NCBI GenBank assembly: GCA_964611205.1
Contig: CAZSZB010000001.1
Span: 123,144 to 187,143, forward strand
Direction of reading: 5' to 3'
Length of the DNA stretch: 64,000 nucleotides
DNA from: an uncultured Candidatus Saccharibacteria bacterium
Lineage (GTDB): Bacteria; Patescibacteriota; Minisyncoccia; Phycocordibacterales; UBA918
Positions within the stretch are counted from its first letter, which is position 1. The number at the start of each line of letters is the position of its first letter. This document shows positions 4,210 through 63,324 of this stretch, piece by piece. Under the pieces are notes generated by a model, which was not told where the DNA came from, did no database searches, and was given only the letters and a program-made list of their open reading frames with translations. Made by a program: the position numbers and the translations under genes.

Positions 4210-4230
4210 GTTCGATAATTACACAACGAA

Positions 4231-4258
4231 AAAGACGGCGCCCCGGTGCCGTCTTTTC
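4231..4258 (+). terminator. Rho-independent terminator
   Basis: GACGGCGCC..GGTGCCGTC hairpin followed by TTTTCTT. Confidence 0.65.
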
Positions 4259-10278: not shown

Positions 10279-10314
10279 TGAACGCCCCGAACTGATGTCC
10301 GGGGCGTTTGGTTT
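10279..10314. terminator. Bidirectional intrinsic terminator between convergent genes
   Basis: AACGCCCCG...CGGGGCGTT 9-bp stem, with a T-run on the + side and an A-run on the other side. Confidence 0.65.
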
Positions 10315-14062: not shown

Positions 14063-14180
14063 GATGTAAAATTATTGCTAGTTGCATGAGTTTTCCTATA
14101 AATTTAGACAAAATAAAACCGCCCGACTCAAGTATGAGCCGAGCGGTTTCGGTTCATCTCAGGTCAAGCGGTGGGCGCAA

Positions 14181-35792: not shown

Positions 35793-35826
35793 AAAAGCCG
35801 GTGAGCTTCGCTCACCGGCCTTTTCG
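35793..35826. terminator. Bidirectional intrinsic terminator (GCCGGTGAGC-TTCG-GCTCACCGGC)
   Basis: A perfect 10-bp stem flanked by an A-run and a T-run, between convergent ppiB and rpmA. Confidence 0.75.
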
Positions 35827-51360: not shown

Positions 51361-52419
51361 TTATGCTACCGCCGCCAAAATAATACCTAAAATACCGCAG
51401 ATAATACTGATTACCCAGTAACGCATAGTTACTTTATAAGAAGGCCAACCGATAGCTTCGAAATGATGGTGTAAAGGAGCTATCCTGAAGAATTTTCGGC
51501 CAGTAGTAAGACGATAGCTGACCTGAATAATGTTAGATAACACAGTGACCCAAAGTGGTAAACCAATGACTAATAACAAAGATACTCCGTTTCCTCCTCC
51601 TAAATTATCAGTCACCATAACAATGACGGCTAAGGTTAAAGTGAGCGCCATAGACCCAGTCTCTGTCATCCAGAATCTAGCTGGTGGTATATTGAACCAT
51701 AAAAAAGCCAGAATTCCTCCAGCTATAGTGGCGCAAAGAGCAGCTATATCATATTGTGACTGAATAATAGCGACTCCAGCGTAAGAGATGTAGATCGAAG
51801 CAAAAACCCCGCCGGATAAACCATCTATTCCGTCTATCACTCCACTAGCATAAAGGAAGTTGGTTAAAAAGATAAAGAATGGAACGATAAGGATTCCTAA
51901 GTATAAAGTACCGTCAAAAGGAATGCTGATGTGAGTAATGTCTAATTTATCATAAAACCACCAACCGATGATGCCGGCTAAAATAGTGACAAAGATAAGC
52001 CTCACTCGCAAGCGTAATCCTTTTCCATCATGTATTACATCAAATATGTCATTTAAAAAACCTACTCCAGCACCTAACATAAGTGTAGCTAGAGGAATAA
52101 TGGTTTGAGAACGACTGAGAAAATCTAAATCTTTAAAAATAGTATCTGGAAAGACGCATTTTAAGGCATAGAGTAAACAAGTAGTAATGATGACACTTCC
52201 CCAAATCACTATTCCTCCCATGCGGGGAGTTTTGGTTTCTCCCTCTGCTTTGAGGCGGTTAAATTCAGTAGCCTCATGTCCCATCATAGCTTTTTTCCCT
52301 CCGACTTTTTTCCAGACTTTGTAACGATACAGATAATGAGTTAATAGAGGTGTTAAAAGAATACCTATAACAAAGGCAAGAGCAGCTGGGATAAGGACTT
52401 TTAGGATAGGATCGTACAT
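51361..52419 (-). CDS. mraY: Phospho-N-acetylmuramoyl-pentapeptide transferase
   Basis: MraY family with the KTPRMGG motif and 10 TM helices. Confidence 0.9.
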   Translation of the reverse strand: MYDPILKVLIPAALAFVIGILLTPLLTHYLYRYKVWKKVGGKKAMMGHEATEFNRLKAEGETKTPRMGGIVIWGSVIITTCLLYALKCVFPDTIFKDLDFLSRSQTIIPLATLMLGAGVGFLNDIFDVIHDGKGLRLRVRLIFVTILAGIIGWWFYDKLDITHISIPFDGTLYLGILIVPFFIFLTNFLYASGVIDGIDGLSGGVFASIYISYAGVAIIQSQYDIAALCATIAGGILAFLWFNIPPARFWMTETGSMALTLTLAVIVMVTDNLGGGNGVSLLLVIGLPLWVTVLSNIIQVSYRLTTGRKFFRIAPLHHHFEAIGWPSYKVTMRYWVISIICGILGIILAAVA

Positions 52420-52455: not shown

Positions 52456-53547
52456 CTAATGGTTTATCAAGTAATTACTTGTCGCTTCATGTAGCTGCAT
52501 GACATCAGTAAAACGGTCTTGTTGAGTAGAGCCAAGCACCACTATTACAACCGGACGATTTAGCCCAGCGTCGTAGGCAATAACAAGATTGCCGCCAGCT
52601 AAATCCGTGTATCCAGTTTTAGATCCAATCAAGCCCGGTATCTGATTGACAAAATAGTTGGTGTTATTAGCTAAGTGATAATCTCCAGATTCATTGTACA
52701 TTTGTACTGAGTCTTCTCGTGTTAACGAAAGGATATCTGGATTATTTTTTACAATATATTCCATTAAGAAAGCCATATCTTTGGCAGTGCTGTAAGCCCC
52801 AGCTTGATTTTTAGAGATATCTAGGCCGGTTGGGTTATAGAAGGTTGTGTCTTTTAAATTTAGTTCTTTAGCCCGAACATTCATCGCTTTCACAAAAGCT
52901 CCTGCTCCAGCATCTTCCTTAATCATATCCCCAGCAGCGATAGCTAATGCGTAAGCACCATCGTTTGAAGAAGAAATAAGCATTAAATCTGAGAGAGTTT
53001 CTCTAGCAAAAACCTCGTCCAATAATAGACCGCTGTCCCCTATCTGACTTAGAGCTTGGGAATTAATTTGTACCCCTGATTTTTTTGCGAGTATTTCGTC
53101 AGCTAAGAGGGCAGTCATTAATTTTGTGATAGAAGCTATGGCCAATTTTTCATCTTCATTCTTTTTATACAGAACCCTCTGGCTGTTAACATCCCAAACA
53201 TAAGCTGCTTCCCCGACCAAAGCTATATCATCAAAATTCCTTCCCTCGTTATTGATAGGATTTAGAATTATCTCGCTTTCGGTAACTTCATCAGTTGCCT
53301 GATTGTTATGGCTATCGGCATTAATAAAAAATTTAGATGTCAGAGTCGTGCTAAATATCAAAAACAAAACACTACCAACCAAGATAAGTTGTTGTTTTAC
53401 AGGCACTCCACCATCGGATCCTACTTCAGTGTAGTTAGTGACTGAATCATTATAGATATCATCAACTATAACCTCTTCATTTAAAAAAGGTTCGGTTGAA
53501 TCAATGTCGTTGTTTTGGTCGTAATCTTCCATGTTATTTATTCTCAT
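52456..53547 (-). CDS. dacA: D-alanyl-D-alanine carboxypeptidase (S11, PBP5-like)
   Basis: SITKLMT (SxxK), SSSND (SxN) and KTGYT motifs. Confidence 0.85.
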   Translation of the reverse strand: MRINNMEDYDQNNDIDSTEPFLNEEVIVDDIYNDSVTNYTEVGSDGGVPVKQQLILVGSVLFLIFSTTLTSKFFINADSHNNQATDEVTESEIILNPINNEGRNFDDIALVGEAAYVWDVNSQRVLYKKNEDEKLAIASITKLMTALLADEILAKKSGVQINSQALSQIGDSGLLLDEVFARETLSDLMLISSSNDGAYALAIAAGDMIKEDAGAGAFVKAMNVRAKELNLKDTTFYNPTGLDISKNQAGAYSTAKDMAFLMEYIVKNNPDILSLTREDSVQMYNESGDYHLANNTNYFVNQIPGLIGSKTGYTDLAGGNLVIAYDAGLNRPVVIVVLGSTQQDRFTDVMQLHEATSNYLINH

Positions 53548-54076
53548 TTTCTATCTCCTTCTCAAAAGCTTCCAGTTTGTCTAATATATCAGGTCTGTCT
53601 GGTAAGTCTTGAATATTAGTGATACCCAAATGAGCTAACAAAATGGGGGTAACTGAAAAAAGATTGCTGTTTCCCTGTGATTGTTTCTCTATCAAGCCTC
53701 TGGTTAAAAGGTTGCGAATAATGAAGGAGGAATTAACACCGCGAATACTGTCAATGTCTGATCGAGATATTGGCCCACGGTATAAAATAATAGCCAAAGT
53801 TTCAGCTCCTGCTTTACCAATGTCACGTTTTAATTCATCTTTACGCATTCCTTCAATAAGATTGTCTAATTGAGGAATGGTAACTAATTGGACCTCTTTA
53901 TCAGTTTCGAGTAGTCTAATTGCTCCTGACTTAAGACGGTTAGAAATAATTTCTAAATTATTAGATAGAGTTTCTTCGTTTATCTCTAATAACTTACAAA
54001 GTTCTTGTTTTTTAAAAGGCGTTCCCTTGTAGAACAAAATCCCTTCGATTTTAAGGTTTATTTCTAGGTCATCCAT
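53534..54076 (-). CDS. scpB: Segregation and condensation protein B
   Basis: ScpB winged-helix pair. It overlaps the dacA start by 14 nt. Confidence 0.88.
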   Translation of the reverse strand: MDDLEINLKIEGILFYKGTPFKKQELCKLLEINEETLSNNLEIISNRLKSGAIRLLETDKEVQLVTIPQLDNLIEGMRKDELKRDIGKAGAETLAIILYRGPISRSDIDSIRGVNSSFIIRNLLTRGLIEKQSQGNSNLFSVTPILLAHLGITNIQDLPDRPDILDKLEAFEKEIENENK

Positions 54077-54938: not shown

Positions 54939-56183
54939 TTAAATAGTAAACTGACCGTTTTGGTAGATAACTTTATTCTTGCCGTTTTTGAGAGTAGCGG
55001 TAACGGTTCGATTAGTGGTGGTTACAAAGTCACTATGGACAATTGAGTTGTTAAAACCAAGTTTATCCCAGTCACTGTTCTTCCATTTAGGGTCAATTTC
55101 CCCTAAATAACAGTCTCTAAACGATGCTCCGATTGCAACGTGACTGTTGCCGTACTTGCCGCCCATATTTTCATCATATAGAGTTTCTGCCATAAATTTG
55201 GTGATTCTTGATAGTCGACTATCAGTTAGTGAGAATTCACCCAACCTGTTCCCTCCTTCTATAGCTAGCATACTTTTAAGTACGTCGTAATTTTTACTTG
55301 CCTTGGATTTGATAACCTTTCCATTCTCAAACCATAATTGAATTCCTTCAATTTTCTTTCCGTTGCTATAGAAAGGTTGATTAAAGCGAATCCACCCCTT
55401 CGTCTCTCTCCAATTGGGAGAGGTAAAGACCTCATAGGATGGAATATTATTGCCCCCACCTGCTCGCCAGAATCTATTGTGGCCAATACCGACAGTCAAA
55501 TCTACGTCTTCTCCTGACATATGAAGAGCTTCTATTTCCATTTTGGTTAATTTATTCGCTGTTTTCTGAACAGTTGAGTCAATCTTTTGCCAAATTTTAA
55601 TCGGGTCTTTTTCATCGAGGTAACATGCTTTGATGATTTGATTCCAATACTGTCGTCCTGTAAGATTAGCTTCTTTTGCTCCGGCATCTGTGCCATAAAG
55701 CACGATAGTCCAGTTTAGTTTTCCGGCGTCTATCTTTTTTCTTTTGTAACTAATTGAGCCACTACGAGCTTTGTTATGAGTAAAGATTTTTTGAGTATTA
55801 ATTTGGTTAAGCTCATGATGATCAGTTTGAGCTAAAACTAAAATCGTACAATCTATTTGATCGATCAAAGCTTTATTTAATTTCTCAGGTGAGAAAGTGA
55901 GCTGGTCCTCAGACGCAATCTTATAGAAGTCTTTTTGGAATTTATACTGAGAATCTGAACTAGGAAAAAATTGTCCGAGAGGATGATAACCATTTTTCAA
56001 AATAGCTTTTTGGAGATGAAAATATAATGGTTTAGCTACTTCTGGAACTAAGTAATGTACTACTGAACCAGGTTTTGGTTTCTCGTCATTCTTATCCCGC
56101 AGACCGAATTGCACTATTAATTCAGCGTATTTTTCAAGTATTTTATCACTAGGTGTGTAGCTTTGTTGCATATTATAGGTCAC
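54939..56183 (-). CDS. M29-family aminopeptidase (AmpS/aminopeptidase T-like)
   Basis: N-terminal LEKYAELIVQFGL and overall M29 similarity. Confidence 0.75.
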   Translation of the reverse strand: MTYNMQQSYTPSDKILEKYAELIVQFGLRDKNDEKPKPGSVVHYLVPEVAKPLYFHLQKAILKNGYHPLGQFFPSSDSQYKFQKDFYKIASEDQLTFSPEKLNKALIDQIDCTILVLAQTDHHELNQINTQKIFTHNKARSGSISYKRKKIDAGKLNWTIVLYGTDAGAKEANLTGRQYWNQIIKACYLDEKDPIKIWQKIDSTVQKTANKLTKMEIEALHMSGEDVDLTVGIGHNRFWRAGGGNNIPSYEVFTSPNWRETKGWIRFNQPFYSNGKKIEGIQLWFENGKVIKSKASKNYDVLKSMLAIEGGNRLGEFSLTDSRLSRITKFMAETLYDENMGGKYGNSHVAIGASFRDCYLGEIDPKWKNSDWDKLGFNNSIVHSDFVTTTNRTVTATLKNGKNKVIYQNGQFTI

Positions 56184-57528
56184 TGTCGTCAGATTTTTCT
56201 TCGGCGGAGAGTAGAGTGTCTATACGGTTAATATCTCTTGGGAAAAGAGTTGCTTCTTTAACGTTTTTAACTCCACAATATTTGGCCGTCAGTCGCTCAA
56301 GACCCATACCGATACCTCCGTGAGGTGGAATTCCATACTTAAAAGCTTGTAAATAGAATTCAAACTTATCAGGGTCCAAACCTTTCTTTGTAATTCTCTC
56401 CTTTAATTCCTCATAGTCATGAACTCTTTGTCCACCAGAACACATTTCTAAACCTCTGAATAGTAGGTCAAAACTACGAGTATACTCAGGATCCTTTGGT
56501 TCTATGTGGGTATAGAAAGGTCTCTTGCTAGTTGGAAAATGAGTAACGAAAACAAAATCTGACCCAAGGTTATTTTTTGCATACTCACAAAGAAAGCGTT
56601 CGTCTTCAGGCTCCAAATCTGGTTCTTTTGTTTTATCAACACCGGTTTCTTTTTTAATGAGTTCTTGGGCCTCACGGAGTGTCATGACTGGAAATTCTTC
56701 AGGAACTAAAGCTTCCTCGACTCCTAGTAAAGCAAGTTCTTTTTGACATTGGCTATTTACTGCTTCCGTCATATAAGTCATTAGTTTTGCTGTCAGAGCA
56801 ATAACATCTTTGTGATCCTTGATAAAACCCATCTCTAAGTCGAGCATAGCAATCTCACTGAGATGTCGAGTTGTGGCACTTTTTTCTGCTCGAAAGGTCG
56901 TTCCGGTAGAGAAAACTCTTTCAAAAACTCCTACCATAATTTGTTTATAAAGTTGTGGACTCGTTGCTAAAGAAGCACTACGTTCTTTGAAGTATTCAAC
57001 CTTAAACACCTCAGCTCCTCCTTCGGCGTCACCTCCTACCAATTTAGGAGCTTGAAACTCAGTAAAATTTTCTGCTATTAAAAAATTTCTGAAGGCAGAG
57101 ATTATAGTTGCCTGGACTTTAAAAATTGCCTGCTCCTGTGGTCGTCGTAGTGTTAGCGGTCGGTTGTCCAGTAAGGTGTCTATAGAGAGATTGCTAGCCA
57201 GATCAAAAGGCATAGCTTCAGCTTTGTTTAGAATCTGTATCTCAGTTATCTCGAGTTCGATATCACCGTTTGGTACCTTATTGTTTATCATCTTTTCAGG
57301 CCGTTTATTAACTATTCCCGTAACCTCAACTGATGATTCTGGACTGGCGTCTTTAGCTATCTCTAGGACTTCTGGCTTACCAAAAACCACTCCTTGTACC
57401 ACGCTAGAATAGTCACGAAAGTCAAAGAAAGCCATTTTTCCCTGTAAACGAACAACGTCAACAACACCATTAATGGTCACTGTCTCTCCTATGTGTTCAG
57501 TTAAATTATTTAAAAGTATACGTTCCAT
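56173..57528 (-). CDS. aspS: Aspartyl-tRNA synthetase, archaeal/eukaryal type (class IIb, probably non-discriminating)
   Basis: N-terminal OB fold, motif 2 FRAEKS and a C-terminal FEFYLQAFKYGIPPHGGIGMGLERL...LFPRD. This is characteristic of archaeal-type AspRS rather than AsnRS. Confidence 0.8.
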   Translation of the reverse strand: MERILLNNLTEHIGETVTINGVVDVVRLQGKMAFFDFRDYSSVVQGVVFGKPEVLEIAKDASPESSVEVTGIVNKRPEKMINNKVPNGDIELEITEIQILNKAEAMPFDLASNLSIDTLLDNRPLTLRRPQEQAIFKVQATIISAFRNFLIAENFTEFQAPKLVGGDAEGGAEVFKVEYFKERSASLATSPQLYKQIMVGVFERVFSTGTTFRAEKSATTRHLSEIAMLDLEMGFIKDHKDVIALTAKLMTYMTEAVNSQCQKELALLGVEEALVPEEFPVMTLREAQELIKKETGVDKTKEPDLEPEDERFLCEYAKNNLGSDFVFVTHFPTSKRPFYTHIEPKDPEYTRSFDLLFRGLEMCSGGQRVHDYEELKERITKKGLDPDKFEFYLQAFKYGIPPHGGIGMGLERLTAKYCGVKNVKEATLFPRDINRIDTLLSAEEKSDDSDL

Positions 57529-57544
57529 ATATTTTTTGCTGCAA

Positions 57545-57838
57545 TAAACGTTCTGTAATTTTATTCGTCAAAACCTAAAGATTTCAAATGCCACGTAAAA
57601 CGCCCCTGCATGCATATTAATTACTAATACGAACGCAGGGGCGATTACAATTTGTTAATTGTTTGTCGCGGTGCCACCCTACTTCGTCCCGTTCTTAGAG
57701 AACAGGACCTTATTTTTCGACCACGCTATTTCGGGCGTTCCCGGGGGGTTCTACTCAAATGAGCTTAATAATAAGCTTATATTTTCCTCCCCCACCTCCA
57801 CGGTGTCAGCCGTTTCGTTGGTTTATTAAACAATAGCA
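57545..57838 (-). promoter_or_regulatory. T-box riboswitch leader upstream of aspS
   Basis: The minus strand reads AAGUAGGGUGGCACCGCG, matching the T-box consensus AAUUAGGGUGGNACCGCG. It is followed by the terminator hairpin CGCCCCUGC...GCAGGGGCG (57601-57643) + UUUUAC, then the aspS start 70 nt further on. Confidence 0.7.
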
Positions 57839-57841
57839 TGC

Positions 57842-58780
57842 TTATAATTCGATGCCAACAGCTTTGCGGACACGGCCTAAAGTTTGATTGGAAACTGCCT
57901 TAGCTTTGGTAGCCCCATCTTGGAGAATGTTTTTTACCTCATCGTCGCTAATAGACTCTCTCTTTTCACGCATCGGTTTGATAACTTCTTCGATGTCTTC
58001 TGTTAGAATATTTTTCAGCTCGCCATATTGCCCTTTGTGCTTTTCGTATAGTTCATCCAGTTCCGCTGTACTTCTAAAGAGACTATGGATGGCGTAGACA
58101 TTTTCAGGTCTCTCCCCTGTTGAATCAGTCACAATGCTCATTACTGATTTTTTAATTTCTTCTTTAGTACCGAACAAGGGGATGGTATTTTTATAACTTT
58201 TACTCATTTTAGATCCATCGGTACCAGGAACTATTCCTACCCCATCTAGTATTACAGTAGTTGGTTCCTTTAAAATCTCACCATAAGCACGGTTGAATTT
58301 ACCAACGGCCTCTCTAGTGTATTCTAAATGTTGTCGTTGGTCTTCACCTACTGGAACTTCGTCAATATCATAAAGGGTAATGTCAGCTGCTTGCAACATT
58401 GGATAGGTAAACAGTCCAGCGTTCGGTTCCCCGCCTTTAGCCACTTTGTCTTTATAGGCATGGCTTTGCATCAGAAAAGGTACTGTCACTAAACAATTTA
58501 ATATCCATCCTAGTTCAGTATGATCTGGATTATCAGACTGACGGAAAATAGTCACTTTCTGGGGATCTATACCAATAGCCAGATAATCTTTTACGATATT
58601 TAGAATATTTTTTTGTAGTAATTCAGGATCACGAACAGAGGTTAAAGCATGATAATCTGCGACCATAAGAAAACTTTCATAATCCTCGTAGACTTCTTTG
58701 AATGGTTTCAGAGCACCAAAATAATTGCCAATATGTAGATCCCCGCTAGGTTGTAGTCCTGTAAATAATCGTTTTTTCAT
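57842..58780 (-). CDS. trpS: Tryptophanyl-tRNA synthetase
   Basis: GDLHIGN (HIGH) and KMSKS motifs. Confidence 0.92.
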   Translation of the reverse strand: MKKRLFTGLQPSGDLHIGNYFGALKPFKEVYEDYESFLMVADYHALTSVRDPELLQKNILNIVKDYLAIGIDPQKVTIFRQSDNPDHTELGWILNCLVTVPFLMQSHAYKDKVAKGGEPNAGLFTYPMLQAADITLYDIDEVPVGEDQRQHLEYTREAVGKFNRAYGEILKEPTTVILDGVGIVPGTDGSKMSKSYKNTIPLFGTKEEIKKSVMSIVTDSTGERPENVYAIHSLFRSTAELDELYEKHKGQYGELKNILTEDIEEVIKPMREKRESISDDEVKNILQDGATKAKAVSNQTLGRVRKAVGIEL

Positions 58781-58835
58781 TCTGTTAGTTTAGCAAGTAG
58801 TTATCGGGTTAGCAAAATTTTCTATTTAGAAGATA

Positions 58836-60491
58836 TTATTTTTTGAGGGGAAATTCCAAGCTAAAAGTTGAACCCTCACCTTCTCCAGCGGAGGCTGCAG
58901 AAATATCACCTCCCATATCGTTGGCCATTTTCTTTGCGATATACAACCCTAATCCAGTCCCGGCTGTATTAATATTGTGAGCATTGTCTGCGCGTTCAAA
59001 TTTGTTAAACATTTCCTCGATAGTTTCAGTAGACATACCTACTCCAGTATCAATAATATCTACTAAAATACGTTTAGGATGCACCTTCTCGTAAACCGTT
59101 ACTTTAATAGATCCGTGTGGAGTGTATTTAATAGCGTTGTTTATTAGATTATGGATAATCTGTCTAGTTTTCCCAATGTCAGCATTTATTATTCCTTGCG
59201 ATTTCAGGTTTGATTTAAAAGTCAGAAGAAGTCCCTGTTTGACAGCTTGTTGGCGCAGATCATCAACGATATTTTTAGTTAGTTGGCTTAAATTGACATC
59301 TGTATAATCATATTTCATATTGCCAGCTTGGATACGAGAGACATTGAGATAATCTTCCACTGATGAAGCCATATAGCTACTAGATTTTTCTATATGTTCT
59401 ACTGCCTCCTCAGCTTTTTTTGGTAACTTGCCAAAAGATCCTTCCAACAACATAGAGGCATAACCGCGGATAGATGTCAGAGGACTGCGTAGCTGGTGGG
59501 AGGCAATGGAAACAAATTCGGATTTCATCTTGTCTAATACTTTGAGCCGATCATTGGCCTTCTGTAACTTAAGTGCCAAATCTTCAATTTCCTTTCTTTG
59601 TTCAAACTCTTTGCGGACACTCTGGATAAGAAGATAGCCAGCTACAGTAGTGAAAACTAGAGTCAAGCCGGCTATTATCTTCAGTAGTTCAGACTCTACA
59701 AAAATCAAAGAACATACAAGAGCCCATAGAACTACCACTAGAACTTGCGCTCCAGCTATCTGAATTTTGAATGCTTCAAATTGGACAATACAATATGCAA
59801 TAAGGAATGCAAAAACTGGCATTCCAAATAAACCATACTGACTGATAGTCCAGTTATCAGTAAAACTACTAATAATGTTACCTGAAGTGAAAGATAGGAG
59901 AAAAGTTAGTAAACCAGTTACAAAAAGAAGTAACACCCGACGCCTGTGTTTTTCCGTAATCCGTAAAGCTTTAACTGCGGTAACGAAGATTAGTATTATA
60001 AATATTAAGTTTAAAATATAAGTATAATATTTAGCTATTGGGCCTTCGATACTTTCACAACTAGAAAGAGCTATTGATTCTAGATTGTAAGTGGTTGGTA
60101 AGAGGATAATTAATGGTAAAAGTAAAAAGGAAATAGCTAGGTTAAGTTTAAAATTAGGAATACTTTTAAAAGCAAAAATATAAAATATATAGAAAGCAAT
60201 TGCATAAGTAAGAGGCTCTATTAAAACCTGCATTGACCAAGCAAACATAACTAAAGCGGGATCATTAGTTGCCCACAATGAGACATCTAACAAAGCCCAC
60301 AAGCTGAAGAGAATTACAAAAATTAATAGAAGACGAGAGATGATGAGCTTTGGATTATTGAAAAAAATCAGCAACCCTACTGCAAGAGCTGAAAAGATAG
60401 CAATAAAATGGGAGTAATTTATCAATAAGGGTACATTTGAAGAAATGAAAACAAATGAGGCTGCTTCCCATGGGCAGTATAATAATTGCAT
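58836..60491 (-). CDS. Sensor histidine kinase with an N-terminal multi-TM (7-8 helix) sensor domain
   Basis: HisKA H-box HQLRSPLTSIRGY and HATPase N/G boxes (NAIKYT, GTGLGLYIAKK). No response regulator is adjacent in this window. Confidence 0.85.
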   Translation of the reverse strand: MQLLYCPWEAASFVFISSNVPLLINYSHFIAIFSALAVGLLIFFNNPKLIISRLLLIFVILFSLWALLDVSLWATNDPALVMFAWSMQVLIEPLTYAIAFYIFYIFAFKSIPNFKLNLAISFLLLPLIILLPTTYNLESIALSSCESIEGPIAKYYTYILNLIFIILIFVTAVKALRITEKHRRRVLLLFVTGLLTFLLSFTSGNIISSFTDNWTISQYGLFGMPVFAFLIAYCIVQFEAFKIQIAGAQVLVVVLWALVCSLIFVESELLKIIAGLTLVFTTVAGYLLIQSVRKEFEQRKEIEDLALKLQKANDRLKVLDKMKSEFVSIASHQLRSPLTSIRGYASMLLEGSFGKLPKKAEEAVEHIEKSSSYMASSVEDYLNVSRIQAGNMKYDYTDVNLSQLTKNIVDDLRQQAVKQGLLLTFKSNLKSQGIINADIGKTRQIIHNLINNAIKYTPHGSIKVTVYEKVHPKRILVDIIDTGVGMSTETIEEMFNKFERADNAHNINTAGTGLGLYIAKKMANDMGGDISAASAGEGEGSTFSLEFPLKK

Positions 60492-62838: not shown

Positions 62839-63324
62839 TCATAATAAAAAAAGTAAGATAAACGGTAACATCAACCACCAAAAGAAGCTTTGTTCAGAAC
62901 CGAATAGATAATTTATGGGAGAGCCAGGCGTGATTATATCGGTGACAGGAAGAACATGATAGCTGTATATCATAATAAGAACAGTTCCGGCGGTTGCTAA
63001 TAAAAACTTTTTCCAAAAGCCTTCAAATAAATTCTCGTCATATTCTCGAGGTAAGATGCGTGAAAAAAGTTTAGTCGAGAGAAAAGTGAAAGTAGCAAAA
63101 ACCAAAATCATTAATATCGCTTTCGATTTTTGACTATCAGTATTGTTAAGCAGCACTTCGTAGTAAGGAAATTCTACAGATATAAGCAAAGCAAAATATA
63201 AACCCAGAATTAAGTTAGTGATACTCTGTCTACCAAACTTCACAGCATAGAATAAAAAGCCGCTAAAAATCACTATCAAAAACAAACATTCCTTTAAAAA
63301 AGAAATAATAGTTGCTGTATCCAT
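62839..63324 (-). CDS. Hypothetical membrane protein (4-5 TM)
   Basis: Hydrophobic ORF with no recognisable family. Confidence 0.5.
   Translation of the reverse strand: MDTATIISFLKECLFLIVIFSGFLFYAVKFGRQSITNLILGLYFALLISVEFPYYEVLLNNTDSQKSKAILMILVFATFTFLSTKLFSRILPREYDENLFEGFWKKFLLATAGTVLIMIYSYHVLPVTDIITPGSPINYLFGSEQSFFWWLMLPFILLFLL

Follow-up and report, generated by a model that had tools for sequence, protein, structure and literature searches.

The stretch of DNA analysed here, called the window, comprises 64,000 nucleotides of contig CAZSZB010000001.1 from an uncultured Candidatus Saccharibacteria bacterium. On its minus strand the gene trpS is followed by aspS, and the region between them holds a leader (57822..57597) with the features of a T-box riboswitch. 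Riboswitches of this kind are the standard example of one RNA being read by another. The protein family matches of the aspS product (Table 1) identify it as a non-discriminating archaeal-type aspartate--tRNA(Asp/Asn) ligase. Its closest homologues share 73-80% identity with it and are found in metagenome-assembled genomes of Parcubacteria, Paceibacterota and Kaiserbacteria, of the Candidate Phyla Radiation (CPR/Patescibacteria). Homologues in these three groups are named nondiscriminating aspartyl-tRNA synthetase (AspRS). An earlier reading of this DNA, made without database searches (the sequence-only reading), had called the enzyme an archaeal-type AspRS, and the NF003483 match bears this out.

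The minus strand reads AAGUAGGGUGGCACCGCG at 57683..57666. The 14-nt T-box consensus AGGGUGGNACCGCG is matched exactly at 57680..57667, and this match is unique in the 64-kb window. A permissive local search of 551 nt with the Rfam T-box model RF00230 gave a match at 57827..57634 on the minus strand with E=4e-08 and a score of 42.6 bits, which is to be read against the gathering score of 93 bits. Every domain of the model is aligned except the distal part of Stem I, where 74 model positions are replaced by 4 nt. The score lies below the gathering score because distal Stem I is absent, at a cost of about 50 bits. The gathering threshold was reached by none of 20 relatives.

We compared 160 aspS loci, 80 genomic and 80 metagenomic, of which 155 had enough upstream sequence. 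A strict T-box core was present in 102 of these 155 (98 with the bulge UGGC and four with UGGU), and five more carried a diverged core, giving 107 in total. The T-box that the sequence-only reading had placed on the minus strand is thereby confirmed, by the exact consensus, the RF00230 match and the core upstream of orthologous aspS genes. That reading had also proposed to verify the T-box with RF00230 and by building a Stem I with a specifier loop and distal-loop motifs. The model does match, although its score stays under the threshold; a Stem I with a specifier loop can be built, but the distal-loop motifs are missing. Both shortfalls arise because Stem I is naturally ultrashort, and they are therefore not evidence against a T-box. 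Judged on its sequence, the leader is a T-box by all core criteria except distal Stem I and the Rfam threshold.

Table 1. Features of the trpS-aspS region of the window, listed in the direction of transcription.
Feature	Position	Strand	Description
trpS	58780..57842	minus	Upstream neighbour on the same strand; TIGR00233, 290 bits
Sigma-70-like promoter	57830..57858	minus	TTGGCA 57858..57853, 17-nt spacer, TATTGT 57835..57830, TG 57838..57837
Stem I, ultrashort	57794..57822	minus	Kink-turn (K-turn), 4-bp helix ACGG/CCGU, terminal hexaloop
Specifier loop CUGACA	57804..57809	minus	GAC (Asp) 57807..57805, then A57804
Stem II	57744..57793	minus	From the Rfam alignment; lower helix GGGGG/CCCCC, 57793..57789 with 57748..57744
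Stem IIA/B pseudoknot	57723..57743	minus	IIA CGG/CCG, 57743..57741 with 57734..57732
Stem III	57686..57708	minus	From the minimum-free-energy fold; 10-bp hairpin GUCCUGUUCU-CUA-AGAACGGGAC
T-box sequence AGGGUGGCACCGCG	57667..57680	minus	Bulge UGGC 57676..57673, complementary to the tRNA 3' end GCCA; full bulge UGGCACC at 57676..57670
Antiterminator	57635..57682	minus	A1 GUAGGG/CCCUGC, 7-nt bulge UGGCACC, A2 GCGA/UCGC with small hairpin cap
Intrinsic terminator	57597..57643	minus	Hairpin 57643..57601 (11 bp + 7 bp), UUUU 57600..57597
AU-rich spacer	57529..57596	minus	No Shine-Dalgarno (SD) sequence, no significant structure (fold z=-0.9)
Promoter-like match TTGAAA-18-TAAAAT	57558..57587	minus	From a promoter scan, 10/12; between terminator and aspS start
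aspS	57528..56173	minus	Regulated gene, 451 aa; NF003483 494 bits, TIGR00458 381 bits, both above cut-offs

The K-turn of Stem I is formed by the C-stem ACC/GGU and the bulge AAC, with sheared G57816-A57815 opposite G57798-A57797. The AG bulge, the distal loop and the elbow platform are absent from the window's Stem I, and a distal Stem I was found in no relative. Stem I modules of the relatives were located with a sequence-only nhmmer profile and aligned with MAFFT, which gave an alignment (A1) of 76 unique sequences. In this alignment, 96.4% of the cells in the Stem I helix are paired, and all seven pairs show compensatory changes. Double-change cells number 55, compared with 15 in shuffles, and slid partners pair in just 23-48% of cells. 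The C-stem of the K-turn is 96.5% paired with covariation, and the GA/GA dinucleotides are invariant or nearly so. The G-A pairs of the K-turn are apparently swapped for Watson-Crick G-C pairs in one relative (L026).

The triplet GAC in the terminal loop of Stem I, an Asp codon followed by the purine A, is identified as the specifier by its conservation. The loop triplet is kept as GAC or GAU in almost all relatives (mostly GAC, about ten times GAU, and twice AAC) while the flanking loop bases vary. The sequence-only reading had left two candidates. CUGACA, with GAC and A, proved to be the right one, since GAC or GAU stands at that position in nearly all 76 aligned relatives. The AAC candidate GUAGAACC belongs to the 3' strand of the S-turn in Stem II and is not the specifier. 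We rejected it on two grounds: the S-turn AGUAGAA belongs to the T-box consensus independently of specificity, and relatives that lack it still carry the GAC loop. The coordinates given for both candidates were one base off; CUGACA lies at 57809..57804 and GUAGAACC at 57754..57747.

The leader stands in front of a gene whose product charges both tRNA-Asp and tRNA-Asn, and the restriction of the loop triplet to GAC/GAU, with AAC twice, supports a T-box for tRNA-Asp. For tRNA-Asp the anticodon GUC is expected, and for tRNA-Asp and tRNA-Asn alike a discriminator G73. We also weighed whether the leader monitors tRNA-Asn, or both tRNAs. The enzyme belongs to the aspartate--tRNA(Asn) ligase type, and the bulge UGGC fits either tRNA, but the window's triplet GAC pairs with GUC and not with GUU. 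AAC is found at the same loop position in two relatives, and the change of the first position from G to A is precisely what distinguishes these two loci. The other AAC considered for the window is part of an S-turn that is conserved whatever the specificity. We therefore regard sensing of tRNA-Asn by the window's leader as very unlikely, and prefer tRNA-Asp.

The two relatives with AAC in place of GAC are L030 (loop CUAACU) and L026 (loop CUAACAA, bulge UGGU). Their loops suggest that these leaders have switched to tRNA-Asn sensing in front of the same non-discriminating enzyme. For the four relatives with a UGGU bulge, sensing of another tRNA was considered. It was rejected for three of them, which retain GAC; the U can form a wobble pair with G73.

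In Stem II, the lower helix is followed by the purine string AGGAAAA (57788..57782), an apical hairpin and the 3' strand of the S-turn, AGUAGAA (57755..57749). The S-turn motif reads GAGGAAAA...AGUAGAA. Pairing in the lower helix is 100%, and three of its five pairs show compensatory changes. RNAalifold, run on the window's architectural class, recovered Stem I, both Stem II helices and the terminator, with covariation in the Stem II helices. In the pseudoknot, the loop ACGC (57738..57735) pairs with GCGU (57726..57723) to form Stem IIB. Pair counts in the alignment of the window's architectural class (A2) show IIA 97% and IIB 95% paired, with A-U to G-C swaps in three sequences. A manual model that joins Stem II, IIA/B and the antiterminator is 98.6% paired, and eight of its pairs have compensatory changes.

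RNAalifold also proposed a pairing of the IIA strand with the T-box (CGG..CGCCC with GGGUG..CCG; columns 84-94 with 150-160 of A2). It maps to about 57743..57733 with 57680..57670 in the window. Stem IIA and the 3' strand of the antiterminator both contain the motif CGCCC, and the pairing has zero covariation. We take it to be probably an artefact of this repeat, although it may act as a decoy in the OFF state.

Stem III has purine-rich flanks, in the window AAAUAAG on its 5' side and GAAGUA on its 3' side, and in the relatives AAnRAG and (G)AAGUA, which may correspond to the published RRRxG motif. Of 70 non-minimal relatives, 67 have a hairpin directly next to (G)AAGUA-GGGUGG, and the sequence of this hairpin varies. 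Its mean folding energy is -12.9 kcal/mol, compared with -4.8 kcal/mol for shuffles.

The second half of the leader consists of an antiterminator and a terminator. Folded alone, 57686..57632 gives the 6-bp helix A1, the bulge UGGCACC and the 4-bp helix A2 at -15.3 kcal/mol. In 11 relatives the pairing of the antiterminator is 100%, and helix A2 shows a single compensatory change, from G-C to A-U. In the terminator, the arms CGCCCCUGCGU/AUGCAGGGGCG (57643..57633 with 57611..57601) form an 11-bp stem that is topped by the 7-bp helix. The terminator folds at -27.8 kcal/mol (z=-7.2). Nine nucleotides (57643..57635) are common to the terminator 5' arm and the antiterminator 3' strand. In a joint fold the terminator displaces the antiterminator (-27.8 vs -15.3 kcal/mol) and is the default winner. 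The two structures are thus mutually exclusive in folding, a point on which the sequence-only reading had staked its proposal. The same reading had described a 9-bp GC-rich hairpin, UUUUAC and then the aspS start; this holds, and the nine pairs lie inside the 11-bp stem. UUUUAC is found at 57600..57595, and the ATG of aspS at 57528 is 73 nt beyond the hairpin. In the relatives, the terminator is 99.2% paired with compensatory changes in 5 of 11 pairs. Of 92 unique leaders, 82 have a hairpin of this design after the T-box, mostly with a U-rich tail. The spacer between terminator and ATG is about 25-30 nt in most relatives, and the window's is about 45 nt longer.

The start of aspS is not preceded by an SD sequence. 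SD-like motifs occur in 6 of 49 window genes, compared with a background of 9% (open reading frames of at least 150 aa). The genome, described earlier as SD-less, is accordingly confirmed as SD-poor. Sequestration of an SD sequence was therefore rejected as the mode of control. Classical intrinsic terminators with similar tails end other genes of the window (14150..14115, 10308..10281, 4230..4257 and 35797..35819). Control is most likely transcriptional because there is no SD sequence to sequester, the genome uses intrinsic terminators, and U-rich tails are present in most relatives. The window's hairpin would be unable to mask the start site because 73 unstructured nucleotides separate it from the AUG.

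A third hairpin is seen in 61 relatives with a 15-45-nt spacer (for example L094, L008, L063 and L018). The terminator 3' arm (for example GCAGGGGCGA) pairs with a segment after the U-tract (for example UCGUUCCUGC) over 9-12 bp. The window has a weak analogue at 57611..57587. This pairing covaries: the energy is -11.2 kcal/mol within the same locus, compared with -8.9 kcal/mol across loci (0 of 2000 permutations, p<0.0005) and -6.1 kcal/mol in shuffles. This third hairpin can coexist with the antiterminator but not with the terminator. When the terminator 5' arm is blocked, the predicted accessibility of the AUG in related sequences changes from 0.60 to 0.65.

These observations bear on the possibility that the leader is a tRNA-Asp T-box whose hairpin does not terminate transcription but works at a later stage, on the initiation of translation or the stability of the mRNA. 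The published T-boxes with an ultrashort Stem I are all translational (bioRxiv 10.1101/2023.02.28.530422; PMC7583486). The covarying pairing of the terminator 3' arm with the pre-AUG segment and the slight rise in AUG accessibility point the same way, but the accessibility effect is small and drawn from related sequences. The U-tract of the window has just four U, yet a U-rich tail follows the hairpin in most relatives, and the hairpin resembles the terminators that end the genome's own genes. The genome barely uses SD sequences, and the aspS leader offers none to sequester; the spacer of 73 nt before the AUG is unstructured. We consider post-transcriptional action unlikely, and prefer transcriptional control.

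A consensus scan placed a sigma-70-like promoter at the trpS 3' end, which it overlaps. The transcript is predicted to start a few nucleotides before Stem I. Relatives share the arrangement: in 61 of 76 unique ones a TTGACn-16/17-TAnnnT promoter has its end 8-12 nt ahead of Stem I, compared with 1 of 73 control windows. No terminator-like site preceding the aspS leader was found in a scan of 57300..59000.

With these parts in hand, one can ask whether the leader is what is left of a canonical T-box that is decaying, has lost its distal Stem I and no longer functions. Decay would fit the absent distal Stem I and the low Rfam score, and about a third of the orthologous loci have no leader altogether. 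A decaying RNA is hard to reconcile with a short Stem I that is conserved, with compensatory changes, in 76 unique relatives at 60-80% AspRS identity. The T-box core is exact, and promoter, specifier, antiterminator and terminator are all maintained. We hold a remnant to be extremely improbable and proceed with a functional leader.

We propose that the leader is a T-box for uncharged tRNA-Asp and that it regulates aspS through attenuation of transcription, and put the probability of this reading at about 75%. Transcription would begin a few nucleotides ahead of Stem I, from the promoter that overlaps the trpS end. The Stem I loop CUGACA would offer GAC to the tRNA-Asp anticodon GUC. By homology with the solved ileS T-boxes, the S-turn Stem II, its purine string and the IIA/B pseudoknot would clamp the codon-anticodon helix, and the tRNA elbow would not be held, Stem I being without the platform. 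Stem III and the T-box bulge UGGC would pair with the free 3'-GCCA of an uncharged tRNA and stabilise the weaker antiterminator, so that RNA polymerase would read through into aspS. With charged tRNA-Asp the antiterminator would not be stabilised, the stronger terminator would form, and transcription would stop at the U-tract (57600..57597). In this scheme we infer tRNA binding, G73, the three-dimensional role of Stem II and termination itself.

Several points weigh against this proposal. A scan of the whole window with Rfam at the gathering threshold reported no T-box. The U-tract is short, UUUU being followed by AC. No gene for tRNA-Asp or tRNA-Asn was found in the window, in its extensions of about 20 kb on the same contig or in the 160 related loci; the tRNA genes found were a tRNA-Glu(CUC) in the window, the same tRNA-Glu in the extensions and only three tRNA-Tyr in the 160 loci. 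The promoter-like match between terminator and aspS could allow basal aspS expression without the T-box, unless it arose by chance in AT-rich DNA. Finally, transcriptional T-boxes are generally held to need the long elbow platform of Stem I, which this leader lacks, for fast capture of the tRNA (review, PMC7583486).

The gene trpS has no T-box of its own, and lysS in the window, which also encodes LysRS, has none. No other T-box was found in 0.88 Mb of clade sequence, apart from one chance match inside a gene. A TATAAT-like box lies 5-15 nt before the ATG in many window genes (for example 26051; 51361..52419, 53534..54076 and 62839..63324, the latter three on the minus strand). The position of these boxes suggests that many mRNAs of the window are leaderless or have very short leaders.

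In the loci that remain after the T-box leaders are counted, aspS mostly starts 10-20 nt after the trpS stop. Loci without a leader include L002, L007, L011, L025, L031, L041, L043 and L053. The trpS-aspS pair is therefore a conserved unit, in which the T-box and its promoter either occupy the junction or were lost from it.

The leaders themselves differ in the segment between Stem I and the T-box, and we used this segment to sort 79 unique leaders into classes. The window belongs to class C (21 leaders), with a spacing of 89-120 nt and a full S-turn Stem II. Class C+ (10 leaders) has an S-turn Stem II and large insertions, with a spacing above 120 nt. Class C' (9 leaders, spacing above 70 nt) is without the S-turn motif, and most of its members have a short Stem II and the pseudoknot. 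In class M1 (30 leaders, spacing 30-70 nt) there is Stem III only. Class M0 (9 leaders, spacing 23-27 nt) has a purine-rich linker and neither Stem II nor Stem III. In all, 39 of the 79 unique leaders are without Stem II and pseudoknot, and nine of these are also without Stem III. Examples with Stem III only are L009, L003, L037 and L044; those with neither stem are L055, L059, L050, L058, L063, L143, L146, L148 and L149. The minimal leaders retain the K-turn specifier hairpin, an exact T-box core and the terminator. RF00230 gave L003 32 bits and returned nothing at E<=0.01 for L009, L055, L059 and L037.

An element of roughly 90 nt recurs in some leaders: AAAUGAGCAAACGAGCG..GCGACUAUUGCGAAUUUAC and, after it, a long hairpin that covaries (AUCCCGAUUUGC...GCAAAUCGCUGGAU). 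Its position differs between genomes. It lies inside the Stem II apex in L030, L033, L081 and L105, and after the terminator in L003, L004 and L099. The element matches no Rfam family, and its distribution suggests a small mobile structured insert. It may explain some of the long distances from T-box to ATG; L003/L004 and L099 are the only leaders where this was directly seen.

Ultrashort-Stem-I (US, 'class II') translational T-boxes of actinobacterial ileS genes were reportedly described by Sherwood, Grundy and Henkin in 2015. Members of this class are translational, all regulate ileS, and they respond to tRNA-Ile (bioRxiv 10.1101/2023.02.28.530422). The decoding module of the solved ileS T-box is built from a K-turn, a short Stem I, an S-turn Stem II and a pseudoknot (PMC7583486, PMC10651847, PMC11297988). 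The window's leader resembles the US ileS T-boxes (6UFG, 6UFM) throughout this half. Stem I is a K-turn with a short helix and the specifier in the terminal loop, and the double T-loop elbow platform is missing. Stem II has an S-turn and a purine string, the IIA/B pseudoknot is present, and the discriminator consists of Stem III and the T-box bulge. The two differ in gene, codon and host: the window has aspS, GAC and a Paceibacteria-like CPR/Patescibacteria genome, whereas the US class has ileS, tRNA-Ile and Actinobacteria. They also differ in output. The US class sequesters an SD sequence, whereas the window has a hairpin and U-tract terminator 73 nt from the AUG in an SD-poor genome.

In its second half the leader resembles the transcriptional T-boxes of Firmicutes (RF00230), which include the Asp-specific aspS and hisS-aspS leaders. 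Shared features are the exact T-box, an antiterminator with a 7-nt bulge opposed to an intrinsic terminator, the basal K-turn, a codon followed by a purine, an aminoacyl-tRNA synthetase as target, and Stem II, IIA/B and Stem III. The window's leader differs from them in being without the specifier internal loop and its S-turn, and without the AG bulge and the distal loop, which make up the elbow platform. The glyQS T-boxes, like classes M1 and M0, have neither Stem II nor the pseudoknot. In glyQS, however, a long Stem I with the elbow platform compensates, and this is absent from the minimal CPR leaders; the window keeps its Stem II. By its sequence features, the window's leader is a hybrid of a US-like decoding half and a classical terminator/antiterminator half, a combination undescribed in the searchable literature. 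In the same literature we found no report of a T-box in CPR/Patescibacteria, including Parcubacteria and Saccharibacteria. For TBDB, the short-Stem-I model was run on Actinobacteria and on those class-I hits whose Stem I is truncated, and on nothing else.

The leader of the window, as read here, breaks two associations: that of transcriptional T-boxes with a long platform, and that of an ultrashort Stem I with translational, actinobacterial ileS leaders. According to published work, a truncated Stem I makes Stem II essential or is compensated by it, and Stem III cannot be dispensed with (the 2020 review PMC7583486 and structural papers). The relatives appear to break both of these rules. We tentatively suggest, at somewhat less than even odds, that the aspS leaders of CPR are a T-box lineage of their own, as yet unannotated, whose transcription attenuation is driven by a bare specifier hairpin with no contact to the tRNA elbow. 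If the minimal leaders work, they would be the smallest natural T-boxes. They would contradict an essential role of Stem II next to a truncated Stem I and an indispensable Stem III, and would imply either a simpler two-point recognition of the tRNA or an unknown helper factor. The classes form a natural series of ever smaller T-boxes in which the minimum for tRNA recognition and for sensing of aminoacylation could be tested. The leaders described here indicate that tRNA-sensing riboswitches occur in CPR/Patescibacteria and that the Rfam threshold and standard annotation miss them. Such T-boxes could be used to mark a lineage, and in engineering as compact parts. For the organisms themselves, which make Asn-tRNA indirectly, the leaders would point to the supply of AspRS as a regulated step.

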